From: a virus
Lineage: Duplodnaviria > Heunggongvirae > Uroviricota > Caudoviricetes
Length of the DNA: 12,800 nucleotides
Reading direction: 5' to 3' (one strand)
IMG/VR virus record: IMGVR_UViG_2563366940_000002
Coordinates: 1 to 12,800 of that record
Shown: positions 1-12,800 of the stretch, piece by piece
How the letters are laid out: each line of letters opens with the position of its first letter
Numbering within the stretch: the first letter of the stretch is position 1
The notes under the pieces: model-generated
The model's database searches: none
What the model was told of the DNA's origin: nothing
Seen by the model: the letters and a program-made list of their open reading frames with translations, nothing else
Translations under genes and position numbers: made by a program

Positions 1-375
1 GCTGACCCAGCCACGAAACACATCCACCGTGCCATTCGGAAAACGGATTTTATAGGCCCGGACATCGCCGCTTTCAAACCAGCCTATAAGCCCTTTCTGG
101 CCTTGCTCTCCCGGTTTCCAGGCCAGCGTAAAACTGGTATCACCTGCAGATTTCTGCCCCTGCCCGGTCGCGGTCCAGTCCGCGTCTTCATCATCCAGGT
201 AGTTATCATCGTAGGATTCTGCCGTCATCTCGCCCGGCGTCAGATCCTTCACCTTAGCCAGTCGCTGCCAGTCATCGTCTGACAACGGGTTTGCATAAGC
301 ATCACCCTTGCCGTTGTAAACCCACAGAGTGGTACCGGCACCTTTTACCGGCTCAAGGGGATTTGGTGTTGCCAT
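1..375 (-). CDS. V: major tail protein, N-terminal part (gene continues beyond window start)
   Basis: Hand translation from ATG at 375-373 gives [57 protein letters not shown]..., colinear with remembered lambda gpV N-terminus ([33 protein letters not shown]...). Position downstream of U matches lambda order. Confidence 0.85.
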
Positions 376-382
376 ATCGTCC

Positions 383-778
383 TCACATCTCGTATGTAAT
401 GGAATAAGTCAGATCTGCAGAACTCCATAACGCCATATCGTCATCACGACGATACTCATAGCCCTGCGTAACCATCGTGGTAATCAGTCCTGCCAGTGCC
501 GGGATCGCGGTCATCGCCGGGTAAATCCGGCTTTCCATCCACTGATCGAGCTCTGAATCCGGTACCTGTGCCGGTAAAAACACCTCAATATGCAGTGTGG
601 CCCGCCAGGTATCTGCATCCAGCTCTTCACCGGTATACTCTGCATCCGTCAGATAAACCGCGATCGCAGGAAAATCCTCTTCGTCAAAAACAACGGGGCG
701 ACCATCAAACAGCGTCGCCCCGTGTTCATGCTGCTCGAGTGCATCCAGCACTGCGGCACGAATGTCAGTGTGTTTCAT
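383..778 (-). CDS. U: tail tube terminator protein
   Basis: 131 aa, same length as lambda gpU and colinear with it from memory ([14 protein letters not shown]...SSADLTY.ITYEM). ATG at 778-776 overlaps Z stop (ATGA coupling). Confidence 0.9.
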
Positions 779-1308
779 CGTTTTATCGCAATCCTCAGTT
801 GTTGTTTCAGCGCGTATGCCAGTTCTTTAGGCAGGCGTTCACGCCGGATACGGTCAACATTCTCATCAAATGCCTGTTTCAGTGGGGCCGCCATCGGGAT
901 TTTCACCACATCAATGGGGTAACGGTTTTTCCCGGCCACACGCTGCATGACATGCCAGCGACCATTTTTTAATCGCTGAATAAATGCCCGCTGATACCGA
1001 TGCTGACCGGCTTTAAGTATGCTGTTCGGGCGACGCCCCAGCATCCTGATCCCCAGCTTAATCACAGGGAGATCACCGCGGTTAACGATAATTCTGGCAT
1101 TCGGATTTCTGACCGTCGCCCGTTTCAGTCTGGACCGTTCCTTAACCAGTTTCCGGCGAACCTTTGTCTCCCGGGCAACCTGTGATGAAGACTGATTAAT
1201 CGCCGTTGTGGCCACGCGGTTAATGGCCATTGCTGAAGCCGCCGGAATGGCGTTTTTACGAACCCGGCTCAGATTGTCAATCGCCTGATCAAGCCCTTTT
1301 ATCGCCAT
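775..1308 (-). CDS. Z: tail completion / minor tail protein
   Basis: 177 aa; N-terminus MAIKGLDQAIDNLSR and C-terminal ...NGRWHVMQRVAGKNRYPIDVVKIPMA...RIRRERLPKEL... match remembered lambda gpZ; sits between FII and U as in lambda. Confidence 0.9.
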   Translation of the reverse strand: MAIKGLDQAIDNLSRVRKNAIPAASAMAINRVATTAINQSSSQVARETKVRRKLVKERSRLKRATVRNPNARIIVNRGDLPVIKLGIRMLGRRPNSILKAGQHRYQRAFIQRLKNGRWHVMQRVAGKNRYPIDVVKIPMAAPLKQAFDENVDRIRRERLPKELAYALKQQLRIAIKR

Positions 1309-1323
1309 AATTTCACCCTGCGT

Positions 1324-1677
1324 TTATCGTCGCCGGTTAACTGCGGGTGGTTGACCACGGTTGAGCCAGAGATAACAGCTGCCCCCGTCATCCGGAGAAA
1401 CACGATCCACCCAGAATATCTCACCATTAATGGTCAGCGTGTCACCACGCCGCACGGCACGAACCGTATCCGTCCGCACAAATAATGACGGGCTGCTTCC
1501 TTCAATACGGACCCCGCCACCGGCAAACCCCAGCGACTCCGGATCGTCAAAAACCCCCTGAACTTCGCTGCCACACTGTGCCCCCGAGGTGAACTGCGCA
1601 CAGAGCCCCATCACTTCAACGATCGTACTGTCTACCCCGGCGAGGGCAGCATCAAAGGCATTCTGAAAATCACGCAT
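1324..1677 (-). CDS. FII: head-tail joining protein
   Basis: 117 aa, same length as lambda gpFII; strongly colinear, including C-terminal FWVDRVSPDDGGSC.LWL.RG.PPAVNRRR. Confidence 0.9.
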   Translation of the reverse strand: MRDFQNAFDAALAGVDSTIVEVMGLCAQFTSGAQCGSEVQGVFDDPESLGFAGGGVRIEGSSPSLFVRTDTVRAVRRGDTLTINGEIFWVDRVSPDDGGSCYLWLNRGQPPAVNRRR

Positions 1678-2053
1678 ATTCAGCCGTTCCGTGCTGTATC
1701 ATGGCCGTTGCCAGTGATGATGGCACCAGAACACGCATACCCCGTAACGCCAGCTCAACGGGACGACCTGTCTCCGGGCAATACCCCATTACTTGCAGGC
1801 ACTTCCGTACCCGGACGGCTTTAACATCATCCGGAGCATCCGTGTTGTTCAACTGCTCACCATCGTCTGTGTGATTTTGATCAGCCCCGCTCTCATCAGA
1901 GTGCATAATGCCCTCCGGGGAAACAGCAAGCTCCTCTTCCCACTCAGACACACGTTGAGCAATATCCGCAGCACTCCCCGACATATCCGCCTCGCGCCCC
2001 AGCAGGCCAGCCAGTTGACGAAGACGATTCAGATTTTCTTCTTTTGTTGCCAT
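1670..2053 (-). CDS. FI: DNA packaging / head assembly protein FI-like
   Basis: Positional equivalent of lambda FI (between E and FII), acidic central region. Start moved from the ORF-track 2101 to internal ATG at 2053-2051, which has an AGGAGG Shine-Dalgarno 5 nt upstream; the longer ORF would run through the predicted terminator hairpin. Confidence 0.75.
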   Translation of the reverse strand: MATKEENLNRLRQLAGLLGREADMSGSAADIAQRVSEWEEELAVSPEGIMHSDESGADQNHTDDGEQLNNTDAPDDVKAVRVRKCLQVMGYCPETGRPVELALRGMRVLVPSSLATAMIQHGTAEYA

Positions 2054-2067
2054 CTCAGCCTCCTGTG

Positions 2068-2096
2068 AAAAAAGACACGGGGGCATTTCGCCCCCG
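2068..2096 (-). terminator. putative intrinsic terminator between major capsid gene E and FI
   Basis: 7-bp GC stem (2078-2084 pairs with 2090-2096, loop ATTTC) followed on the minus-strand transcript by UGUCUUUUUU (plus-strand A-run 2068-2073). Begins 9 nt after the E stop. Confidence 0.45.
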
Positions 2097-2104
2097 CTCA
2101 CGGA

Positions 2105-3133
2105 TTATTTCACCTGTACCACCACAAACTCATCCGGATCCGGCAGCACCATCAGCGGAGCGGACTGCGTCATGGTGAATTCACAGGACGGATCGCCCAC
2201 GGTCAGCCAGTGTTTCGGGTAACGGGAAGAAGCCACCACTCCTTCAGACAACGCCTGTGCATCCTTAATGGCACCATAGCAACGAATCCCCTCTGCCGCC
2301 GTATTCCCCAGCACCAGCATGCCCTCCGGCAGATAACGTTTTTCGGTACCGTCCTCTGCCACATAAGACGTTTTCGCCACCACAATGGCCAGATCGCCGT
2401 AATACCCCTTGAAGGACACCACTGCGCCCAGATCTTTCACTGCCGTTTCGAGTTGTGAATTTGAGCCGCGACGGGTATCCAGTTTTTCGCGGAACAGCTT
2501 AAAGCCATTCAGCAGACGCCAGACCGTACCGTCCATAATGGCGATATTCACAAGGCCGCTGGCCTGATCGCAGTAGAGGTCAATATCATGCGTCGGATCA
2601 AACGTATCACGGTCCTGCTCAGACCATTTTTTACCGTCAGCCTGCTCAATGTTATTTCCTTCAGAGCGCCCGAAATCCACCTCGACAGTATCAAACTGAT
2701 CCCCTTCCATGGTGTATTTGCCATACAGCACGGCATTCACCGCCTGCATTTCTTCCACCTGGACAATGGCGTGCTCTTCCTGTTTGAGGTTATCGGTAAT
2801 GATACGCAGACGACGGTAGGCCGGGTCGTTCAGCTGAGCCGGATCTTCACCAGGAAGGCGCTCAACCGCCTGCTGGTAATTAAATTCGTGTTTGGGCTTG
2901 ACGTAGCCCGGACGTAACACGCGGGTTTCACCACCGCGATGGCGAAGCACTTTTCCTTCAACGATCGGGGAGACATAGGCCGCCACCGGCGTTTTTCCGG
3001 TAATTTTGTCCAGCATCACCTCTTCGGTGTGGAAATTCACCGTACGGCGGAAAAACAGCTCCAGAAACAGCGCACGGAATTTCACTTTTTGTTCGGTATA
3101 ACCGAGTAACTGGCGGGTCGTAAACAATCCCAT
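2105..3133 (-). CDS. E: major capsid protein
   Basis: 342 aa versus lambda gpE 341 aa; long colinear blocks (SPIV.G.V.R.RGG, PGYVKPKHE, DPAYRR.RII, IAQVEEMQAV.AVL.GKYTM, KLDTRRGSNS.LETAVKDLG, MIQSAPLM.L.DPDEFV.VQ). AAGGAA Shine-Dalgarno upstream of ATG at 3133. Confidence 0.95.
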   Translation of the reverse strand: MGLFTTRQLLGYTEQKVKFRALFLELFFRRTVNFHTEEVMLDKITGKTPVAAYVSPIVEGKVLRHRGGETRVLRPGYVKPKHEFNYQQAVERLPGEDPAQLNDPAYRRLRIITDNLKQEEHAIVQVEEMQAVNAVLYGKYTMEGDQFDTVEVDFGRSEGNNIEQADGKKWSEQDRDTFDPTHDIDLYCDQASGLVNIAIMDGTVWRLLNGFKLFREKLDTRRGSNSQLETAVKDLGAVVSFKGYYGDLAIVVAKTSYVAEDGTEKRYLPEGMLVLGNTAAEGIRCYGAIKDAQALSEGVVASSRYPKHWLTVGDPSCEFTMTQSAPLMVLPDPDEFVVVQVK

Positions 3134-3162
3134 AAATCAGTTCCTTTCATTCAGAAATCAGT

Positions 3163-3182
3163 CAGGCCGCCATGGTGGCCTG
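3163..3182 (-). promoter_or_regulatory. GC-rich near-palindromic hairpin in the D-E intergenic region
   Basis: CAGGCCGCCATGGTGGCCTG is a near-perfect inverted repeat, 8 nt downstream of the D stop and about 30 nt upstream of the E start; no strong U-tract follows on the minus strand. Confidence 0.3.
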
Positions 3183-3190
3183 ATAACGTG

Positions 3191-3538
3191 TTACGGCAGA
3201 GCCGCGTGACTCAGGGCTGTGCCGGCAAAGGCATTTGCCTTTTTGTGTTCATCCACACTGTCAGGCCAGCGGATTGCCTCCGTCGCAAAGGTCCCCGACT
3301 TGTAATAGGTCAGCACCGTCTCTGTGCCTTCAAGCGGCAGTACCAGTATGCCAACCGCACTACCGGCTTTCTGTCCATCCCAGACCACCAGTTTCCCGGT
3401 GGCTTCATCCAGCATCAGGGGCGTCAGAGCCGGTGTTGCAGAAGAAATCCCGCTGCTGCCTGTGGCGGTATGAGCCGGATCATTACCGGCAAAAATACGT
3501 ACTTCCGCACGCTGTTCAGTGATGGTTTTCGTCACCAT
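3191..3538 (-). CDS. D: head decoration protein
   Basis: 115 aa versus lambda gpD 110 aa; motifs DPAHTAT, TPLMLD, KLV.WDG, YKSGTF and FAGTA shared with remembered gpD. Confidence 0.9.
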   Translation of the reverse strand: MVTKTITEQRAEVRIFAGNDPAHTATGSSGISSATPALTPLMLDEATGKLVVWDGQKAGSAVGILVLPLEGTETVLTYYKSGTFATEAIRWPDSVDEHKKANAFAGTALSHAALP

Positions 3539-3574
3539 TTTGTTAAAACCTCATATTGATGGTCAGCACTGACT

Positions 3575-5080
3575 TCATGGCATGGCCATGAGCATTTTCA
3601 CGTCCGCATCACCGTCTGCTGACGTCTGTGACACGCCACCCCGCACCGCTGCCGGTGAATGATTCGCCATGAAATGTTCAAACAAGGCGGTTGTGGATGC
3701 AGAGACCGGTTCGGCCTTACCTGATCCCGCAGCCAGCACAGCCCGGGCGTTCTCCACGGTCATTCCCGGGCAGGCCGCCAGTTTTTCAGCCTGCGCTTCT
3801 GCCCCTTTTGCCTCATCCAGGGCCATGATCTGATCACGAAGTGAGGGCCCGGCATTCGCCTGCGGTGAGGCAGCCAGGATCGGGCGGGCTTTTTCCACCG
3901 TCATCTCCGGCATCGCCGCCAGCGTTGCCGCCAGTTGTTCACGACCTTTCGCTTCTTCACACGCCATAATGCGATCGGCTTCACTCTGCGCGGATGCCAC
4001 CGGCTGCTGTGGTGCCGCCGCGGCCAGAATCGCCCGGGCCTGTTCAATGCTCATGCCCTGTTGTCCTGCCAGCATCGTGGCAAGCTGTTCACGTCCTTTC
4101 GCTTCCTGACACGTCAGGATCCCCATCACTCGCTGGTTCTCCTGCGCGGCAGCTTCCGTTGCAGTTAATTGCGGCATAGTGCCTCCTGTATCATGAGTGT
4201 TCAGCGCCGCAGCCATCACGCTGATGGCATCCGACGCATTGATTAATTCATCCGCCAGTCCGGCCTTAATAGCGGACTGACCTTCAAAAACGGCAGCCTC
4301 TGTCCCCGTGACAGCTTCCACAGACAGCCCCGTATACATCGCCACTTTTTCGGCAAACATCCGGTGCGCCGCATCAACCCGCTGCTGCATGTCCTGACGC
4401 ACCTCTGCCGGTAAGGCTTCAAACTGATTGCCATCCACCTTGTGCGCCCCGGCATAAATCAGCGTGATATCCACCCCGGCCTGCGCCAGATGACCGGCAT
4501 AGCTGACATGGCTCATCATCACGCCAATGGAGCCGATACGGGATGTCTGGGTAACCAGCCGTCGGGAGCAGGCCGACGCCAGCAGCATGGCTGCAGAACA
4601 GGCCGTGTCATTGCACAGTGCCCAGACCGGCTTCTGCTGACGGAGGCGGTAAATCATGTCAGCGCAGTCAAACGCGCCGGCGGCCTGCCCGCCCGGACTG
4701 TCAATGTCCAGCAGTACGCCCCGCACCTGGCTATCTGCCATTGCCTGCTGAAGACAGGCGACAATGCCGTCATAGCCTGTCATTCCGGAAAATGGCCGCA
4801 TACCGCCCAGCCGGTGCACCAGCGTGCCGGTCACCGGCAGTACAGCAATACCGTTCACCACCCGGTAAACACGGGCCGGTCGTTTACCTCCGGCCATGTA
4901 CTCGTCCGTTTCAGCCAGCATTCCGGGAGCATCAAGCTGTACCTGCTGTTGTGGTACCGAAAGACTTGCTGCCCCCATCTCGCGCCCGAGCGCGCAAAAG
5001 AAAACCCGCGCATAGGCGGGCTCCAGAAGCAGCGGTTCATTGAATGCTGCGGCAATAATGTGTGAAAGATTACGTCTCAC
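3575..5080 (-). CDS. C: prohead protease / scaffold protein (S49 ClpP-like peptidase with C-terminal Nu3-like scaffold domain)
   Basis: 501 aa; N-terminal two thirds colinear with lambda gpC (NEPL.LEPAYARVFFCAL, NGIAVLPV.GTLV, PGG.AGAFDCAD.I, KPVWAL.ND..CSA..LLASA.SRRLVTQT.R.GSIGVMM.H). GTG start at 5080-5078 with GAGGAG upstream. C-terminal third holds three tandem repeats (see repeat feature). Confidence 0.9.
   Translation of the reverse strand: MRRNLSHIIAAAFNEPLLLEPAYARVFFCALGREMGAASLSVPQQQVQLDAPGMLAETDEYMAGGKRPARVYRVVNGIAVLPVTGTLVHRLGGMRPFSGMTGYDGIVACLQQAMADSQVRGVLLDIDSPGGQAAGAFDCADMIYRLRQQKPVWALCNDTACSAAMLLASACSRRLVTQTSRIGSIGVMMSHVSYAGHLAQAGVDITLIYAGAHKVDGNQFEALPAEVRQDMQQRVDAAHRMFAEKVAMYTGLSVEAVTGTEAAVFEGQSAIKAGLADELINASDAISVMAAALNTHDTGGTMPQLTATEAAAQENQRVMGILTCQEAKGREQLATMLAGQQGMSIEQARAILAAAAPQQPVASAQSEADRIMACEEAKGREQLAATLAAMPEMTVEKARPILAASPQANAGPSLRDQIMALDEAKGAEAQAEKLAACPGMTVENARAVLAAGSGKAEPVSASTTALFEHFMANHSPAAVRGGVSQTSADGDADVKMLMAMP
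3686..4132 (-). repeat. three in-frame tandem repeats (about 47-53 codons each) in the scaffold domain of gene C
   Basis: Protein level: R[VI]MGILTCQEAKGREQLATMLAGQQGMSIEQARAILAAA / RIMACEEAKGREQLAATLAAMPEMTVEKARPILAAS / QIMALDEAKGAEAQAEKLAACPGMTVENARAVLAAG. DNA level: gttcacgacctttcgcttcttcacacgcc near 3946-3975 recurs as gttcacgtcctttcgcttcctgacacgtc near 4087-4116. Lambda gpC, from memory, has one such unit. Confidence 0.6.
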
Positions 5081-6662
5081 GTGGTGTTGTCTCCTCTTCC
5101 GGCCTGCGACTCTCCGCTATCTGCTGCTGATACGCCTGCGCTATCCACACCGGACGTGAGAGTCCGGCTTTTTCCCGCTCTGCAGATTCCCTGACCTGCT
5201 GGCGGAAAATGTCCTGATAATCCTCGCCCATCAGCGCCAGCTCTTTCTCATACGTGCTCAGTCCGGCCTCAATGCGCATCACTGATTCCTGAACCTCCTT
5301 GAGCCCGTCAATGGCCATTCTTCCGGCTCCAATCCACTCAGCCCGTGACCAGGCTGATCGCGCCTGATAAAAATCAAAACGTGCCCGTGGCGGACGAATA
5401 ATCCCCCGAAGAAGTGCCTCTTCCAGCCAGCAGGAAAACATCTGCGTGGCCAGCCGGGACGCAATAAATTTTCGCCGCCCCATAAAATAGCGCCACGACT
5501 CATTGGCGGATGCGCGGGCACTTGAATAACTGACCTTCGAGTAATCACGGGACAACTGTTCGTAGGAAACGCCAAGACCGGCGGCGATATACCGCAGCAG
5601 CGCCTGTTCAAGCGCCGAAAATCCATTGTCTGAATCCTGCGCGGTCTGAAGTTTCAGATCATCACCGGGGAAAAGGTGCGGAATTTTGACACCGCCCAGC
5701 GTCACGCTATTCGTGTCATACCAGGTGGAGAACTTCTCCAGAATATTAATAAGCGGATTATCCTTCTGCTCCTGTGGCGCGCCGGCGATATATTCAAAGG
5801 CCTTTTCGGTATCAAGTTCACTTTCAATCGTCGCTGCATACATCGCCTTCACTATGGCCGACTGAAGCTGTGTTGCCTGCAGGGAATCGAGCATCTTCAG
5901 CCGTTCCATGACGCTGTAAAACTGATTGGCCCCACGGGTCTGCCCGTCCTCCACCGGCTCGAAAATATGCAGCATGGCCGGACGCCCGGTGGGAAGTTCA
6001 CGCGGGATCCGTTCCCATCGTCCACTACCAGAGAACGGAAAATCATCCTCACAGATATGGTACGCAACGGCACGACCATATCGATCGACCTCCACACCGG
6101 CCCGCAGAAAACGGTTCCCCATACCGTGTCCTGGCGTGTCCACCCGTTTCGGACTCACGGCTTTAAAACGCGTACGGAATAACTGCGTGGTTTCCGTATC
6201 CCAGACCGGCTGCACAAAGATTTCGCCGTTAAACGCATGAACGCCCACACCTTCACGGATAAATTCCGTAAACGTGCGTTTCCCTTCCACGTCGATCTCG
6301 CCAAACATCCCTTCGGCGTATTCCGACCAGGCCGCCTCCACCTCATCGACAAAACTTTTTGCCGCAGTCTCCCGCATCCCCAGCCAGCGCCAGTTCGGAC
6401 GGTAGCTGATCAGAAACATATGCCCGACAATATGATCCTTATGCAGGGCCACCGCATTAGCCGCTATCCCGTTATTGCGCACCAGATCATCTGCCCGGGC
6501 ATTCCCCAGACGCAACGCAGGCAGCAGGGCTGCATCGGCACTCTGCGCTGGTGGCAACCACTCCGCCATTTGCCCGCCAAATCCTGCACCGCCACCGTTG
6601 TAGCTGAGGCTCTCCCGAAGCGGAACGCCGTTCACATCAATCAGGACAGGCGTTCGTTTCAT
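5070..6662 (-). CDS. B: portal protein
   Basis: 530 aa versus lambda gpB 533 aa; extensive colinear identity (GNARADDLVRNNG.AANA..LH.DHIVG, FEPVEDGQTRGAN.FYSVME..KMLD.LQ.TQLQSAIVKAMYAATIESELDT, LLRYIAAGLGVSYEQLSR.Y...SYS.ARASANESW.YFMGRRKF.ASR, GRMAIDGLKEVQE.VM.IEAGLSTYEKE). Overlaps W and C as in lambda. Confidence 0.95.
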   Translation of the reverse strand: MKRTPVLIDVNGVPLRESLSYNGGGAGFGGQMAEWLPPAQSADAALLPALRLGNARADDLVRNNGIAANAVALHKDHIVGHMFLISYRPNWRWLGMRETAAKSFVDEVEAAWSEYAEGMFGEIDVEGKRTFTEFIREGVGVHAFNGEIFVQPVWDTETTQLFRTRFKAVSPKRVDTPGHGMGNRFLRAGVEVDRYGRAVAYHICEDDFPFSGSGRWERIPRELPTGRPAMLHIFEPVEDGQTRGANQFYSVMERLKMLDSLQATQLQSAIVKAMYAATIESELDTEKAFEYIAGAPQEQKDNPLINILEKFSTWYDTNSVTLGGVKIPHLFPGDDLKLQTAQDSDNGFSALEQALLRYIAAGLGVSYEQLSRDYSKVSYSSARASANESWRYFMGRRKFIASRLATQMFSCWLEEALLRGIIRPPRARFDFYQARSAWSRAEWIGAGRMAIDGLKEVQESVMRIEAGLSTYEKELALMGEDYQDIFRQQVRESAEREKAGLSRPVWIAQAYQQQIAESRRPEEETTPRET

Positions 6663-6865
6663 AACCTCACTCCCAGCGGACGACGGCGACGGCGGGTTGT
6701 CCCCAGTACCGACTCCGCATCATTGATCGCCCGGTTAAGCTCATCCAGAGAAGCTGCCGTATATTCAATTCTGCGACCATCTTTCTGGACAGACACCACC
6801 CGTTTACCGGTTAATAAATCAAGGCGCGCCTGACGCAGCGCCTGCAGTTCAGCGACTGTAACCAT
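6659..6865 (-). CDS. W: head-tail connector / head completion protein W
   Basis: 68 aa, same length as lambda gpW; DLLTGKRVV.VQKDGRR.E.TA.S matches from memory. ATG at 6865 with GGAGGAG Shine-Dalgarno; start overlaps A stop, stop overlaps B start. Confidence 0.9.
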   Translation of the reverse strand: MVTVAELQALRQARLDLLTGKRVVSVQKDGRRIEYTAASLDELNRAINDAESVLGTTRRRRRPLGVRL

Positions 6866-8777
6866 TCACTCCTCCGGACAGCTTCGCTGCCAGTTCTTTA
6901 AGGGTTGGCCGGGTCGTCTCTTCTTCCCGGGATTTTGCCAGTACAGCCAGATCAAGCTGCCAGCGTTGCACGGACACACGTAATGCCGCGTAGGCATACA
7001 CCAGGCAGTCCAGCGCTTCGTTACGCCGCTTTTTGTTATCCCACAGCAGACGCATCTTTCCTTTTTCCCACTTCTCCACAAGCTCTTCCGCCACCAGTTG
7101 CTGCGCCTCTGTCTGCGAAAAAATCTCCGGATCATCAGGAAAACGGATGGCATACGACGTGGCTTCATCCGCAGGCGTGGGATCGGCTTTCATACGGGCA
7201 TAGAGAATTTCTTTTGCGGTGTCCGTCCCCACTTCACACAGATACACGCCCCGCTGATTGCGGGTTTTCGGCATGGTGATCACCGGCTTGCCATAGACAG
7301 ATGCGCCTTTTACCGGCAGCACCCGGAAAACACCGTGTTTTTTTGACCTCTGATAGACAATTTCACCATCGATCCCCCCGGTGTCCCAGCAGACACGGGA
7401 AATGGTCATTTCGGTTCCGTCTGCATGGCAGTATTTTTTGTTGATCGCCGCATCCACACGTAACAGCGTCTCTTCCTCATCGGGACGGCCCATAATGATG
7501 ATTTTATCCACCAGAAAAGCTTCCTCTCCCGGTGCCCATCCCCAGACATACATCTCAAAACGGTTTCGCTGCGAGTCAATGCCCGCCGTCAGATAAACCA
7601 CCCGGGCTGGCACCGCCGCCGTGTAATGCACGACCTTATCCATCAGTACCTGGTGATCGAGTTTTTCGCCCACGGCCTCTTCCCAGGTCTCGCCCAGCGT
7701 GGTGTTCACAAAGGTTTTCAGGCCGTTGGGATCTTTCAGTGCATCCAGCCAGTCATAGACTATCTGTACCCAGGTGGTGAACGGACTGTACGCCGTCCAG
7801 ATATGGAACGTGATGGAGCGCGGCGGCGGAATTTCATTATCCGCGGCGCTGAAAAACGTCAGACCGTCACGGGTCCACATCCCCGTGTTTTCACAGATCC
7901 ACCGCCCGTTGCTCTGGTCAAGCTCAGACTGATGGATCACGCAGCCATGATGTTCACAGAGGTAGAAAACGCTTTCGGGGCTGTCCTTCTCCCATTTAAG
8001 GCCAAAAGGCGTGGATTCATCGCCAAATTTCAGATACTGCTCCTCCCCACAGTGTGGGCAGGGCACATAAAAACGCATGAAATGCGCCGACTCGTTGGCC
8101 GCTTTTTCGATCTGGCAGGTGCCTTTGATTTTAGGCGTCGAGCCGCGAATGGATTTGGGCCATACAGAGCCCTCAATACGTTTATCCCCAAGCAGGGTTG
8201 GCGACCCCTCTTTTTCGACATCCGGTTCGAACGAGGAAAGTTCGTCATAGCAGACCACGTCCACGGATTTTTCACGGTAGTTTTTAGCGGCAGCCCCGCC
8301 CAGGCACCAGAAGCCCACGCCCGATGAAAAACGTTTCAGCGTGAGGGTATTATCACGATGTTTACGCCCAAACCACGGTGCAAGATCGAGTAAAACCGGC
8401 ACATCCCTGATCGTGGGTTCCACATGAGATTTCATAAAATCTTCAGCAGCAGAATCCGTGGGCTGGAAAAGAAGGCTGTTGCGTGATTTATGCTCAATAA
8501 AATAAGCCTCCACTCCCAGCAACATCTTTGTATAACCAACACGGGCAGATTTAATCAGATTAACAGTGCGGATCCGGTCATTCCCCATGCTGTTCATGAT
8601 GGCAACCTGAAACGGCAGTGTTTCCCACCGCCCCGGGGTGTAAGATGACTCTTTCGGAAGGTAATAATGTCGATCTGCCCACTGAACTGTCGTCAGAGGG
8701 ACAGGAATTTTTAGCGCAAGGAGGCCGGTTGCTATCGCTCCTGCAGAATTAGCCGCCCTCAGTTCGTCTGAAATCAT
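6849..8777 (-). CDS. A: terminase large subunit
   Basis: Colinear with remembered lambda gpA across the whole length ([141 protein letters not shown]). Start placed at the third in-frame ATG (8777-8775, AGGTGGA Shine-Dalgarno 5 nt upstream), giving 642 aa versus 641 in lambda; the ORF-track start at 8819 has no ribosome-binding site. Confidence 0.95.
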
Positions 8778-9297
8778 CAATCCACCTGCGCACATTCTCA
8801 CCGGCTTCAGAAGCCACATCGGATGCTTTCGCGATTTCAGTTTTCACAGCATCAAGATGTACGGGTGATATATCAGGGTATTTACGCTGCAGTGTCTGAG
8901 GGACACGGACAAGGATCCCTGATATATTCTGTGCCACTCGCTGAAAGATGTAGGTAAATAACTCCGTCTCGAGGACAAGGCCTTCCTCACGAGCATTTTT
9001 CAGCTCCTGTGCATCGGCCTGTGCCTTCGTCAGTCGGTAACGTTCGTAATCAATGGTGCAGGGCTGAAGGTCTGATTCGCTGGCAGCCCTCAAATCCTCG
9101 ATCTCTTTACGGAGTTTTTCGTTTTCAATATCAGCTTCCCTCTGCGCATACCACTGAATGGCAGCAGTTGTATCAAAAACTGATTCAGTCCCTTTCCCTC
9201 CACCAGAAACTAGTGGTAACCCCTGACTCTGCCAGGCGGTGATGGTCCTGACATCAACGCCAAAAATATCGGCCAGTTTTTTCTTATTGACGTTCAT
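8749..9297 (-). CDS. Nu1: terminase small subunit
   Basis: 182 aa versus lambda Nu1 181 aa; N-terminal helix-turn-helix [27 protein letters not shown]...GGGKG and [40 protein letters not shown] match remembered Nu1. Immediately adjacent to cosB. Confidence 0.95.
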
Positions 9298-9510
9298 ACA
9301 CTCCCCCGGGAACCAGAAAGGATCTGAAAATGGCGTTTTCTAACAAAAACAGCCTTTGTCAGATCCTTTTATATTTTTAAAATTCTATTGATAATCAATC
9401 AGTTAAAAAGAAGAACGGATCTGATTTTTCCCTAAAAATTTTCATAAATAGCGAAAACCCGCGAGGTCGCCGCCCCGTAACCGGTCGGATCGCCGGAAAG
9501 GACCCACGAA
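9298..9510. other. lambda-type cohesive end site cos (cosB - cosN - cosQ side)
   Basis: 9450-9475 (AGCGAAAACCCGCGAGGTCGCCGCCC) is the exact reverse complement of the remembered lambda left-end sequence GGGCGGCGACCTCGCGGGTTTTCGCT; the 12-nt cohesive end GGGCGGCGACCT maps to 9464-9475 on the minus strand. Flanking sequence on the lysis side (reverse complement GGCGATCCGACCGGTTACG) resembles the lambda right end; the AT-rich stretch 9300-9450 towards Nu1 resembles cosB. Confidence 0.85.
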
Positions 9511-9587
9511 ATGATAATTATTATCATCTATATAAGGTTTATCACAACATGTGTGTACGCCATCAAACCACGAGAAATAATCAATTA

Positions 9588-9620
9588 TGACGCAGGTATC
9601 GTATTAATTGATCTGCGTCA
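9588..9620. promoter_or_regulatory. 8-bp perfect inverted repeat TGACGCAG-N17-CTGCGTCA upstream of the ylcI-like gene
   Basis: Read directly: tgacgcag at 9588-9595 and ctgcgtca at 9613-9620, AT-rich 17-nt spacer, about 60 bp upstream of the 9682 start codon; a GATAAT -10-like hexamer lies between. Candidate operator or binding site; function not established. Confidence 0.3.
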
Positions 9621-9681
9621 AATTAACGTAAAAGCAACTTCAGATAATACAAATCAGCAACACTGAATATGGGGAAACATT

Positions 9682-9867
9682 ATGTCATCAAAGAACAGAA
9701 CCCGCAGAACAACAACCCGCAACATCCGATTTCCAAACCAGATGATTGAACAAATTAACATCGCTCTTGATCTGAAAGGTTCAGGAAACTTTTCAGCGTG
9801 GGTTATTGAAGCCTGCAGAAGAAGGCTGTCAACAGAGAGTTCGGGTATGAATTACATAATTAAGTAA
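9682..9867 (+). CDS. ylcI: YlcI-like small protein (DUF3950 family), function unknown
   Basis: 61 aa beginning MSSKNRTRRTTTRNIRFPNQMIEQINIAL..GSGNFSAWVIEACRRRL, which I recognise from memory as the YlcI/DUF3950 family found next to nohD (Nu1 homologue) in the E. coli DLP12 prophage. ATG at 9682 preceded by GGGGAAA; opposite strand to all structural genes. Confidence 0.7.
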   Translation: MSSKNRTRRTTTRNIRFPNQMIEQINIALDLKGSGNFSAWVIEACRRRLSTESSGMNYIIK

Positions 9868-9999
9868 CATGGTGTTCACAGAACACGCAGTTACCGGACA
9901 CATCAGTTTTCCATTCGCTCCCTGGCAGTACAGGCTTCCCCTCTGACGGGATAGCCTGAAAAAATAACACAGAAAATTATTTGTTATAATTAATATAAC

Positions 10000-10140
10000 T
10001 TACTCAAAAAAAAGCGACGAGAAAATCAGCATCAACGAACAATAAGCGCCAATACGTGATAACAAATGGCAGCCATATTTATCTGCAGTATAAGCAATGG
10101 ACAGGATAACCACTCCAGAAACCGTCAGCATAAAATCCAT
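10000..10140 (-). CDS. hypothetical 46-aa hydrophobic peptide (uncertain)
   Basis: Hand translation MDFMLTVSGVVILSIAYTADKYGCHLLSRIGAYCSLMLIFSSLFFE; ATG at 10140 with GGGGAAG about 7 nt upstream; two short hydrophobic segments. Lies in a T-rich (minus strand) stretch, where hydrophobic ORFs arise by chance, so it may be spurious. Confidence 0.2.
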   Translation of the reverse strand: MDFMLTVSGVVILSIAYTADKYGCHLLSRIGAYCSLMLIFSSLFFE

Positions 10141-10490
10141 TTGAACTTCCCCGGACAAAATCGACTCATCTAAAGATTTACAGCTCTTTTTATTATCAAT
10201 ATGTTAAAAGTAAAATAAACAGATGTTCAATAACACGAATACAAAAACGTGCTGAAATTCAATGAATCCATTTCTGTGTCATCAATTAATAGTGATAAAC
10301 ATCCGGCTTCTTCCACCATCGCACCGGACAGGCGACTATGAGGGGACAACGCCGCGCTCCGTTAACGCGGTAAACCCCGGTGTGTGTCGTTTTTGATTAT
10401 CCCCGCACACTCGCGCAGAGGAGTCTCCCTGTCGGGCTGCGGTCTCTGTTAATGCGGGGATACGGCGACAATACCGCGCATCAGCAAAAC

Positions 10491-10964
10491 CTATTTCAGG
10501 CACTGAGTGCGGATATAGTCCTGCGCCCCTTCCAGCTGCTTCTGCATCAGCATCAACCGTTCTCTGAGAGTGAAATAATCCCGTTCAGCGGTGTCTGCCA
10601 GTTGGGGGCCGGTTGCATTATCCACGCGGGCGGTGCCGGTGGCTTCACGCACGGGACCTGGACAGGTGGCGTTGATACGCAGGCGCTTACGACCAGCGGC
10701 AACGTCAGCGCGAAGAGTTTCATTTTCAGCTCTCGCATCGGCTAATTCCCTCGAGTATTTTGCATCGAGCGCAGCAACATCGCGCTGGCGCACCTGCATA
10801 TCAGTAATGGTTGCGTTCGCCAGCTTCAGTTCACTGGCTTTGTTATCGCGCTGCGCTTTGTAGGTAATCGCGTTATCACGGTAATGGTCTGTTGCCATCC
10901 ACAGCGCTCCACAGGCCACCAGCAGAATAACGATAAACGCGGAAAGCATTCGGTTTATGTTCAC
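10491..10964 (-). CDS. Rz: i-spanin (inner-membrane spanin subunit)
   Basis: 157 aa versus lambda Rz 153 aa; N-terminal transmembrane segment then [14 protein letters not shown]....[45 protein letters not shown]...REAT...[33 protein letters not shown], strongly colinear with lambda Rz. GTG start at 10964-10962 overlaps the upstream gene stop (GTGA). Confidence 0.9.
10553..10738 (-). CDS. Rz1: o-spanin (outer-membrane lipoprotein spanin subunit), embedded in +1 frame of Rz
   Basis: 61 aa; lipobox LPLVVSAC then proline-rich [27 protein letters not shown], matching remembered lambda Rz1 (LPLVVVGC...[27 protein letters not shown]). Entirely inside Rz in another frame, as in lambda. Confidence 0.85.
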
Positions 10965-11092
10965 CCCAGCAGCCCCGACGAAGACAACATCATCCAGGCC
11001 ATGGAAAGAAAAAGAGCAACCAGCATTAGTGAAAATGAAATGCCGACAATTACACAGAGGATCTTCGCCAGCGTTATGAGTTTGTCTGACAT
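10961..11092 (-). CDS. hypothetical 43-aa hydrophobic membrane peptide
   Basis: [43 protein letters not shown]; ATG at 11092-11090 preceded by AAGGGAGGA with ideal spacing; stop overlaps Rz GTG start; upstream gene stop TGA overlaps this Shine-Dalgarno. About 34 consecutive hydrophobic residues. The ORF-track version (73 aa from 11182) is trimmed to this internal start. Confidence 0.5.
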
Positions 11093-11106
11093 GCTTAATC
11101 CTCCCT

Positions 11107-11289
11107 TCACGATTTCAACGCAATGACCAGTTTTGCCAGCCCATACAGCATCGGGGACACAGCAACACCGACCGCCACCCACTTAATGGCAAAAGCCAGT
11201 GCTCTGCTGATGTCATCAGTTACAGGCGCTTTCAGTTCAAGGCCGTTTTTCATAGTCAACCTCAACAGAATTCGTTTATACTTTTCCAT
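11107..11289 (-). CDS. hypothetical 60-aa tail-anchored membrane protein
   Basis: [60 protein letters not shown]; ATG at 11289-11287 preceded by AAGGGAGAA; basic N-terminal region and one C-terminal transmembrane segment. Trimmed from the ORF-track start at 11322, which has no ribosome-binding site. Confidence 0.5.
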
Positions 11290-11322
11290 GTTCTCCCTTG
11301 CCTTATCCAAGGTCAGAAACAC

Positions 11323-11355
11323 AAAACCCCGCTTGCAGCCAACAAACGGGGTTTT
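11323..11355. terminator. putative bidirectional intrinsic terminator between endolysin and the small membrane-protein genes
   Basis: 13-bp stem with one mismatch (aaaaccccgcttg at 11323-11335 pairs with caaacggggtttt at 11343-11355), 7-nt loop, A-tract / T-tract arms, and T-rich flanks on both strands (plus: ttacttttatt; minus: gtgtttctg). Confidence 0.5.
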
Positions 11356-11445
11356 TACTTTTATTCACTTAGGTTTTGCCAGTTCTCAGGATTTCGTGTT
11401 ATCCGTCCGCATTAGCCAACGTCATTTTTCAACAAAATATTCTGC

Positions 11446-11979
11446 TTATTTGTCAATTCCCCAGCACGCCAGCGCGCTCTCCTGGTCACGCCGTGAGACC
11501 TGTCCATAGCAGTTATTTGAACGAATACGGCAGTCTCTGCCACCGTCCTTAATCCACCAGCGAATCGCCTCACATGCTCCCCTGCGATCGCCAGCATTAA
11601 TTCGTCTGTAAAACGTCGACGGGAAACACTTACCGGGACCAATGTTGTACGGACAGAATGACGCGATCCCCGCTTTCTGGGGTTCGGTCAATGGCACTTT
11701 GATGTTTTTCTCCACCCATGCCAGCGCCTTATCACGCTCAATGGCGTTAACCCGGTCGCATTTTTCCTTCGACAACTTCATGCCCGGAACGACAGGTTTG
11801 CCATCCACCAGGATGGCACCGCGGCAGATGGTCCAGATACCCGCGCCATCACGGTATGCCGTGGTGTGGTTACCTTCCTTTTCATCCAGAAACTGGTCGA
11901 GAATGTCAGGCGCAGGCGCACCAGCGGCAATCAGCGCCAGAACGGCAGCCGACAGGCCGTATCTGATTTTTGCGTTCAT
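11446..11979 (-). CDS. R: endolysin, T4-type lysozyme fold (GH24) with probable N-terminal SAR (signal-anchor-release) domain
   Basis: 177 aa; catalytic spacing E-x8-D-x5-T in FLDEKEGNHTTAYRDGAGIWT as in T4 lysozyme and P21-type R; Gly/Ala-rich weakly hydrophobic N-terminus (GLSAAVLALIAAGAPAP) typical of SAR endolysins; overall resemblance to remembered P21/DLP12 RrrD-type lysozymes. ATG at 11979. Confidence 0.9.
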   Translation of the reverse strand: MNAKIRYGLSAAVLALIAAGAPAPDILDQFLDEKEGNHTTAYRDGAGIWTICRGAILVDGKPVVPGMKLSKEKCDRVNAIERDKALAWVEKNIKVPLTEPQKAGIASFCPYNIGPGKCFPSTFYRRINAGDRRGACEAIRWWIKDGGRDCRIRSNNCYGQVSRRDQESALACWGIDK

Positions 11980-12084
11980 GGATATTTATCAGGATTTATC
12001 GGTTTCTGAGCCCTGGATATGTTTATCAGTTCCAGCCTGTTGCCTCAGGCTGCTAACAGGTCAATACAATCATGAGGATTATTT

Positions 12085-12357
12085 ATGGACAATAACACCA
12101 TTTCTCTACAGGAGTTGCTCGACAGCATTTCCAGGCTTCGGGAAGACGTGAATACCCTTACCGTCGCCTTCTCATATCTGGCATTCTCAATTCCAAGGGA
12201 ACAGATGCAATCAACGCTGGCATCAATCCAGTTTGAATCATGCAATCCCAAATGGTCTCAGGAACAACAAGACTCTTTCAGGCGGCTTGCTGTATTACTG
12301 GATGAAAAATATGCTGGTAAAATTACCATTTCGGCGGACTCTTCAGAGAACCCGTAA
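12085..12357 (+). CDS. hypothetical protein, 90 aa, no recognised family
   Basis: ATG at 12085 preceded by GAGGA at about 7 nt; possible sigma70-like TTGCCT ... TACAAT upstream (12040-12070, spacing slightly long). No transmembrane segment, N-terminal region looks helical. Overlaps the 3' end of the convergent 114-aa ORF by 35 nt, so one of the two may be spurious. Confidence 0.4.
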   Translation: MDNNTISLQELLDSISRLREDVNTLTVAFSYLAFSIPREQMQSTLASIQFESCNPKWSQEQQDSFRRLAVLLDEKYAGKITISADSSENP

Positions 12358-12667
12358 TTATTCCCGGTAGTTTTCCTCTGTAGGTTATCAACACATCCTG
12401 CGCCTCTAAAATTACGGGGCGCTTTTCCGGCGACTGCTCATCCCCTTCACATAACCCGGCAGCAACATCCAGGAAGACCTGTCTGATGCTCCTTCTGGCT
12501 GCTGCCTCATAAAACTCCAGCGCGGCACCTTCAACACGGTCCAGCGAGATGTCCAGGTCAAAAATTTCACCGTCAAAGCGTTTTTTGTCCCGTAACGCTA
12601 AAGTTACCGTAACTTTATTCTCAAAATTGCGGATCCCTTTCACAATCAGTTTATAGTTTTGAGTCAT
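12323..12667 (-). CDS. hypothetical protein, 114 aa, no recognised family
   Basis: MTQNYKLIVKGIRNFENKVTVTLALRDKKRFDGEIFDLDISLDRVEGAALEFYEAAARRSIRQ...; ATG at 12667-12665 preceded by GGGGAGAG. Same strand as the lysis genes; no transmembrane segment, so not a holin. The ORF-track 5' extension to 12799 is read-through of the IS end and is discarded. Confidence 0.5.
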   Translation of the reverse strand: MTQNYKLIVKGIRNFENKVTVTLALRDKKRFDGEIFDLDISLDRVEGAALEFYEAAARRSIRQVFLDVAAGLCEGDEQSPEKRPVILEAQDVLITYRGKLPGIITGSLKSPPKW

Positions 12668-12706
12668 TGAATTACTCTCCCCGTGCAGCCTTACGACGGT
12701 CCTCTC

Positions 12707-12800
12707 TGAACCGCCCCGGGAATCCTGGAGACTAAACTTCCTGAGAAAGAGGTAAACAGGATGACTAAAAATACTCGTTTTTCCCCCGAAGTCCGTCAAC
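12707..12800 (+). mobile_element. left end of an IS3-family insertion sequence (IS629 / IS1203-like), truncated by window edge
   Basis: 12707 onward reads TGAACCGCCCCGGGAATCCTGGAGACTAAACTTCCTGAGAAAGAGGTAAACAGG ATG ACT AAA AAT ACT CGT TTT TCC CCC GAA GTC CGT CAA, which I recognise from memory as the IS629-type left inverted repeat plus the start of orfA (MTKNTRFSPEVRQ). Confidence 0.85.
12761..12800 (+). CDS. IS3-family transposase OrfA, first 13 codons only
   Basis: ATG at 12761 preceded by AGAGG; translation MTKNTRFSPEVRQ matches the remembered N-terminus of IS629/IS1203 OrfA; truncated by window end. Confidence 0.8.
   Translation, partial: MTKNTRFSPEVRQ

Follow-up and report, generated by a model that had tools for sequence, protein, structure and literature searches.

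The analysed stretch of DNA, hereafter the window, comprised 12,800 nt of a Caudoviricetes record of IMG/VR (IMGVR_UViG_2563366940_000002, positions 1 to 12,800). The locus examined belongs to a lambdoid prophage of E. coli, of which it forms the lysis region. Near the end of the window, two small genes run towards each other between a lysozyme-family endolysin gene and the left end of an IS3-family insertion sequence. A reading of the sequence alone had proposed such a convergent pair with a 35-nt overlap of the 3' ends, and both the ORF listing and the inspection of the sequence agreed with it, as the minus-strand and the plus-strand ORF share positions 12323-12357. The following features were recognised:

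10961-11182, minus strand: small ORF between endolysin and Rz, phrog_4906
11107-11322, minus strand: small ORF between endolysin and Rz, phrog_1115, with a hydrophobic C-terminal stretch
11446-11979, minus strand: lysozyme-family endolysin, 177 aa (PF00959, E 3.2e-24; phrog_7, endolysin)
12033-12052, no strand: inverted repeat CAGCCTG-ttgcct-CAGGCTG with no T-run, within the 105 nt that separate the endolysin start from ORF90
12074-12078, plus strand: Shine-Dalgarno sequence GAGGA of ORF90, 6 nt ahead of the ATG, read from the sequence
12085-12357, plus strand: ORF90, 90 aa (ATG at 12085, stop codon at 12355-12357; phrog_2411; WP_000369850.1, 'hypothetical protein')
12323-12357, both strands: convergent 3' overlap of 35 nt, in which the YdfR tail ITGSLKSPPKW is encoded opposite the last 11 codons and the stop codon of ORF90
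12323-12667, minus strand: ydfR-family gene, 114 aa (ATG at 12667, stop codon at 12323-12325; PF07041, phrog_406)
12672-12709, minus strand: 38-nt 3' remnant of a class II (S21-type) holin gene, from the alignment with the intact locus L001 (PF04971 in relatives)
12710-12800, plus strand: left end of an IS3-family insertion sequence, from the homology break; orfA starts at 12761

The span originally given for the pair, 12045-12706, was looser than the genes themselves, although the overlap and both ORFs were as described: an unrelated antisense ORF ends at position 12045, and position 12706 lies inside the holin remnant beside the IS junction at 12709/12710. The TGA at 12707-12709 can be assigned to either side of this junction. 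The good ribosome-binding sites that had been noticed on both ORFs were found again, as a GGAGAG-type Shine-Dalgarno sequence read 7 nt upstream of the ATG of ydfR and as the GAGGA preceding ORF90. Also the statement that neither protein is membrane-embedded held, the maximum Kyte-Doolittle value over 19 residues being 0.75 for ORF90 and 0.69 for YdfR. Among the late genes, that of the endolysin follows next on the downstream side of the pair; its product has a hydrophobic N-terminal segment and is 89% identical to RrrQ of K-12. The two small conserved minus-strand ORFs between endolysin and Rz (10961-11322) form a further variable slot in the lysis cassette.

The minus-strand protein, first regarded as unrecognisable, belongs to the DUF1327/YdfR family. 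Pfam matched its residues 1-111 with PF07041 (DUF1327) at E 4.5e-42 and 142.6 bits against a cut-off of 25, phrog_406 was matched over the full length, and PGAP names the product 'YdfR family protein' in the loci that are 100% identical to the window. The window YdfR (pI 7.8) starts with the DUF1327 N-domain, which takes up about residues 1-74; a linker leads from there to the C-terminal tail, which ends IITGSLKSPPKW. The AF2 model shows three strands and a helix, predicted with moderate confidence, over residues 5-73; its C-terminal hairpin is of low confidence. Among the YdfR homologues P0064-P0182 the conserved core ends near SLKTPP, and the C-termini beyond it are interchangeable. Proteins that stop after the core have 114 or 116 aa, those with an extension of 60-80 aa have 176, 183 or 196 aa, and further members of 103-104 aa have a different end. 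A coiled-coil segment, IEKLEGRVADLNKKL, is present in addition in the long forms; judged by eye, it is similar to the N-termini of the small partner proteins encoded opposite ORF90-like genes, described below.

In the Qin prophage of K-12, ydfR (P76160; DUF1327) likewise lies directly after a class II holin gene, essQ, and before a lysozyme gene, rrrQ. Residues 1-74 of the window and K-12 proteins are 80% identical and 96% similar, while past residue 74 the two are unrelated: K-12 YdfR has a helical end and 103 aa in total, whereas the window YdfR has 114 aa and a predicted hairpin tail ending ITGSLKSPPKW. Furthermore, ydfR of Qin overlaps rrrQ directly and has no ORF90 opposite. The shared N-terminal part is the one reported to bind RNase E, as residues 1-72 of K-12 YdfR were enough for a two-hybrid (BACTH) interaction with RNase E 1-597 in a study from 2026 (PMC13232886). 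In the same study Rne 1-598 co-purified with Strep-YdfR, DNase-resistant nucleic acid (RNA) co-purified with YdfR as well, and overproduction of YdfR altered few transcripts and caused no growth defect (PMC13232886). These RNase E-binding data concern K-12 YdfR only, with its different C-terminus. Dip of phage phiKZ (gp37; PMC4980113) is comparable as a phage protein contacting RNase E, a contact that for YdfR would follow from the K-12 data; Dip is reported to attach to RNA-binding segments within the scaffold of RNase E, while K-12 YdfR was reported to bind the catalytic N-terminal half.

With megablast, many E. coli chromosomes proved to contain the 741-nt region at 100% identity, and phage vB_EcoS-783R2 contained it at 99.7%. 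The order on the late strand of the intact 100%-identical loci is SASA-family esterase, class II holin (216 nt), YdfR, WP_000369850.1 on the opposite strand, lysozyme, two tiny ORFs and Rz. In the intact locus L001 the 216-nt holin gene stops 4 nt ahead of ydfR, and the homology between this locus and the window breaks at 12709/12710, within the holin gene. A 96-nt query taken past the break matched 23,021 places annotated 'IS3 family transposase'. As judged from these alignments, an IS3-family element has inserted into the class II holin gene and left 38 nt of its 3' end. With its holin disrupted by the IS, the prophage is probably defective in lysis, unless a different holin stands in.

The gene order of the intact loci, together with the IS break inside the holin gene, places the pair between S and R. 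It had been assigned to the Q-S slot that carries stx, but the holin lies upstream and the pair follows the holin stop codon. The holin-to-endolysin slot is occupied by a ydfR gene also in L001, L002, L003, L004, L091 and K-12 Qin, and in the Stx2k-converting phage phiSTEC1575 the holin separates stx2AB, on its upstream side, from the pair on its downstream side. In the locus of that phage (L005, 770-1427), holin, ydfR and ORF90 are followed by a different second lysis set of two holin-like genes and an M15 peptidase, and the lysozyme is replaced. The lysis region is a cargo hotspot also in other relatives: ParE/ParD-like genes and a Rha-family gene lie downstream of the endolysin in L088-L090 (about 1589-2123), and genes for a putative HicA/HicB, recognised from sequence, adjoin the pair in L105 (5087-5770).

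The product of the plus-strand gene is acidic (pI 4.5) and predicted to be a small, cytoplasmic three-helix protein, the AF2 model (pLDDT 78) placing helices at residues 8-34, 38-52 and 59-77. The part encoded in the overlap, residues 80-90, was predicted to be disordered (pLDDT < 50), and it is missing in the shorter homologues of Citrobacter and L087. Phrog_2411 was matched over positions 1-90 of 90 (E 1.1e-58). Searches of Pfam, NCBIfam, PADLOC, PDB sequences, PDB folds and viral folds gave no match for ORF90, and no paper on it was found. The phrog_2411/ORF90 family included 62 clusters in a search of 5.8 billion proteins, nearly all of them from Escherichia/Shigella, with one from E. albertii and one from Citrobacter. 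In most members the length is exactly 90 aa, and this holds as far down as about 71% identity. One 90-aa variant, P0061 ('ybl58'), matches ORF90 at the ends only (residues 1-25 and the last 12), and its middle matches a +2-frame ORF at 12233-12370 of the window, a pattern that suggests either a double frameshift or an error in sequencing. ORF90 DNA was present in 1207 of the 5426 complete E. coli genomes (22%), annotated 'hypothetical protein' every time, and in three of the 50,697 deposited phage genomes, a strong skew to resident prophages.

The length of ORF90 proves little by itself, as an ATG-initiated ORF of at least 90 codons appeared in 43 of 5000 shuffles (0.9%) of the 378-nt stretch; the case for the gene therefore rests on conservation. 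Over the 237 nt free of the ydfR overlap, pairwise dN/dS was 0.10-0.35, and the variable sites were distributed among the three codon positions as 23/13/40. The antisense frame -1 likewise had low apparent dN/dS, and stop codons interrupted it in four of the five variants; only the ORF90 frame was open in all of them. The AGGAT of the ribosome-binding site was invariant across the seven diverse homologues aligned. On this comparative evidence, ORF90 is identified as a real protein-coding gene. The sequence-only reading had allowed for one real gene and a shadow ORF, an option excluded by the purifying selection in the plus frame and by the full-length family matches of both proteins.

The pairing is facultative, each gene being found also without the other. 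In phage vB_EcoS-640R1 and other sister phages about 270 nt are missing exactly at the ORF90 site; in the sister phages that have no ORF90 block, YdfR has 116 aa and its gene is 63 nt from the lysozyme gene. DNA of ydfR type was detected in 4305 genomes against 1207 for ORF90. Conversely, ORF90 is intact in L088-90, where ydfR is reduced to a remnant, and solitary chromosomal ORF90-like members were found in L095, L101-102 (between dinI and bssS) and L103. The member in L101 (4001-4279) and L102 (1463-1741) is the remote homologue P0197 (E 2.7e-6), located two genes downstream of rne (RNase E), a nearness that may be coincidental. Mosaic breakpoints were located within ydfR and precisely at the ydfR/ORF90 junction. 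In the viral contig L034 (3271-4148) the gap between ORF90 and ydfR is about 0.9 kb, which suggests an insertion inside the pair.

The claim that the convergent pair forms a unit gained support from remote homologues of ORF90, which again face a small extra gene at other positions of late operons. A profile search of 1.84 billion representatives recovered only 20 proteins. These remote relatives are full-length, with 24-58% identity, and have the AFSYLAFS and FES-N core in common. ORF90-like genes antisense to late genes and facing an extra small gene were found in Citrobacter, Yersinia and uncultured phages. In the gap between the tail genes M and L (L092-94, L100, L107-108) the ORF90-like gene lies on the strand opposite the tail operon and overlaps the 3' end of an extra gene of 60-71 aa. 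In Yersinia massiliensis (L106, L109), where the pair follows tail gene I, the partner has 71 aa and ends EKITGSLFAPLSAHPSE, and near the terminase (L098-99) it ends RLTGDILIPLES. In the lysis region of Citrobacter, the partner is a 63-aa protein ending KITGSLRAPIKL in L086 and a 238-aa YdfR-like protein ending KITGSLRVPMKL in L105, where the pair is upstream of a 112-aa ORF that is a putative holin from its position and hydrophobic sequence only.

Most partners of the ORF90-like genes end in an ITGSL-like motif (ITGSLxxP), the partner in L096 being without it. In L092 the overlap is only 7 nt, and the motif lies beyond the overlapped nucleotides too, so it belongs to the partner protein itself and is no by-product of the overlap. 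Two of the partner proteins were homologous to each other (E 8e-6), and the match of a small partner to the YdfR tail was weak (E 0.008-1.5). The partners are heterogeneous, and between some of them sequence comparison detected no similarity.

No sigma-70 consensus promoter was found upstream of ORF90 within the window; candidate -35 and -10 elements, TTGCCT and TACAAT with a 19-nt spacer, were read by eye only. No terminator was called within the window, and none was detected after ORF90 on the plus strand. Hairpins with T-runs resembling intrinsic terminators were present on the late (minus) strand of four relatives, each an independent context, at 3856-3873 in L092, 3852-3866 in L098, 3859-3876 in L105 and 3833-3849 in L106. 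They sit 125-170 nt upstream of the start codon of the ORF90-like gene, just past its 5' end, and mark an edge of the cassette. The window has no equivalent of these late-strand terminators, their position being occupied by the T-run-free hairpin at 12033-12052.

The bor gene of lambda, beside the lysis cassette, is an example of a phage moron. The present pair resembles morons, as defined earlier (PMC3594210), in several respects. It places extra coding sequence between late genes which are direct neighbours in sister phages, as seen from the absence of the ORF90 block in these phages and from the insertion of the M-L pair in tail operons. ORF90 is oriented against late transcription, it is far commoner in prophages (1207/5426 E. 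coli genomes) than in phage records (3/50,697), and in the relatives L092, L098, L105 and L106 there is a terminator at the cassette edge. It differs from such morons in that no clear promoter was found for ORF90 in the window, in that the product is predicted to be an acidic protein of the cytoplasm and not of the envelope, and in that the unit consists of two convergent genes instead of a single promoter, gene and terminator.

Taken jointly, these results describe a lysis region with an IS-cut holin gene, in which ydfR would be a late accessory gene, ORF90 an independent gene, and the pair, on balance probably, a facultative two-gene cassette of moron type. This reading is drawn from the recurrence of an ORF90-type gene with a facing ITGSL-tail gene at several late-operon positions. 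The main rival remains one of unrelated neighbours: the late gene ydfR and an independent single-gene moron, ORF90, would be adjacent only because this intergenic site is a hotspot of recombination and cargo, with an overlap that has no function. Such an origin is possible, if clearly less probable, and it agrees with the occurrence of each gene without the other, the recombination breakpoints at the ydfR/ORF90 junction, the other cargo nearby in relatives (ParDE, Rha, HicAB) and the highly variable C-termini of YdfR. It does not lead one to expect that remote homologues of ORF90 at unrelated positions (between tail genes M and L, after tail gene I and near the terminase) again have an extra convergent small gene, usually with the same C-terminal motif, in a tail operon otherwise without a gene there.

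That the pair is a toxin-antitoxin or an abortive-infection (phage-defence) module, as the sequence-only reading had suggested, appears unlikely and gained no positive evidence. Like the type II systems ParDE and HicAB, it consists of two small adjacent genes that recur as a unit at prophage cargo positions; one partner is small and acidic, as are many antitoxins and inhibitors, and bona fide toxin-antitoxin pairs lie close by in relatives. However, three of the four defining features of type II systems were lacking: the genes are convergent rather than co-transcribed in an operon, no PADLOC, NCBIfam or toxin/antitoxin Pfam family was matched (Pfam gave DUF1327 only), and both genes commonly persist alone instead of co-occurring obligately. 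Moreover, no toxicity was reported for K-12 YdfR, the overexpression of which left growth unaffected (PMC13232886). A regulatory RNA is still harder to reconcile with the data and is considered very unlikely. Under that explanation, a plus-strand transcript through ORF90, antisense to ydfR and the holin gene, would silence leaky lysis genes in the lysogen, the protein being secondary. The convergent orientation with its 35-nt overlap would fit, and with no plus-strand terminator detected after ORF90, read-through into antisense ydfR and holin is plausible. Yet purifying selection acts on the ORF90 protein, which stays conserved down to 24% identity, a level at which the DNA can no longer be aligned, ORF90-type genes are present also in tail operons and at chromosomal sites without a lysis gene to silence, and Rfam gave no match. 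Least credible is a chance or shadow ORF opposite a non-coding spacer, already refuted by the comparative data. The 0.9% of shuffles reaching its length and the low apparent dN/dS of the antisense frame -1 would speak for it, but that antisense frame is stopped in four of the five variants and the ORF90 frame in none, the protein is conserved family-wide along with its ribosome-binding site, and ORF90 is intact where ydfR is deleted.

If the pair is a facultative moron-type cassette, its working can be outlined as follows. The ydfR gene would be an accessory gene of the late operon, packed 4 nt behind the holin gene, and the C-terminal third of its product a swappable module, represented here by the short tail ending ITGSLKSPPKW. 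ORF90 would have been inserted against late transcription, in a gap that many sister phages do not have. A weak promoter of its own may transcribe ORF90 in the lysogen, and after induction the convergent, Q-antiterminated late transcription would silence it, so that ORF90 and ydfR would be expressed reciprocally. Acting late, the window YdfR may influence host RNA turnover via RNase E, for which binding has been reported with K-12 YdfR, and the protein with the tail may have the ORF90 product as its antagonist or its partner. A wider proposal, put forward here as speculative and rather improbable, is that ORF90-like proteins together with the facing coiled-coil/ITGSLxxP-tail proteins constitute a mobile convergent module of temperate enterobacterial phages, in which the acidic three-helix protein, expressed from the prophage, binds or gates its late-expressed partner, the E. 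coli partner being fused to the RNase E-binding YdfR domain. If this were true, the module with the YdfR fusion would be a lysogeny/lysis switch acting on host RNA decay.

Both genes are already in databases, and hundreds of copies identical to that of the window exist, so that the sequence as such is not new; the recurrent convergent pairing and the ORF90 family appear to be undescribed. The map of the locus is corrected in that the cargo point lies between S and R and the holin has been lost to an IS. ORF90 is carried by prophages in about one in five complete E. coli genomes, without a name, a domain, a structural relative or a paper, and its neighbour YdfR has just recently been linked to RNase E. 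As a convergent unit recurring at varied late-operon positions, the pair leads to the hypothesis that the two genes are expressed reciprocally, that their proteins may be in contact, and that together they may affect RNA decay or the timing of lysis.
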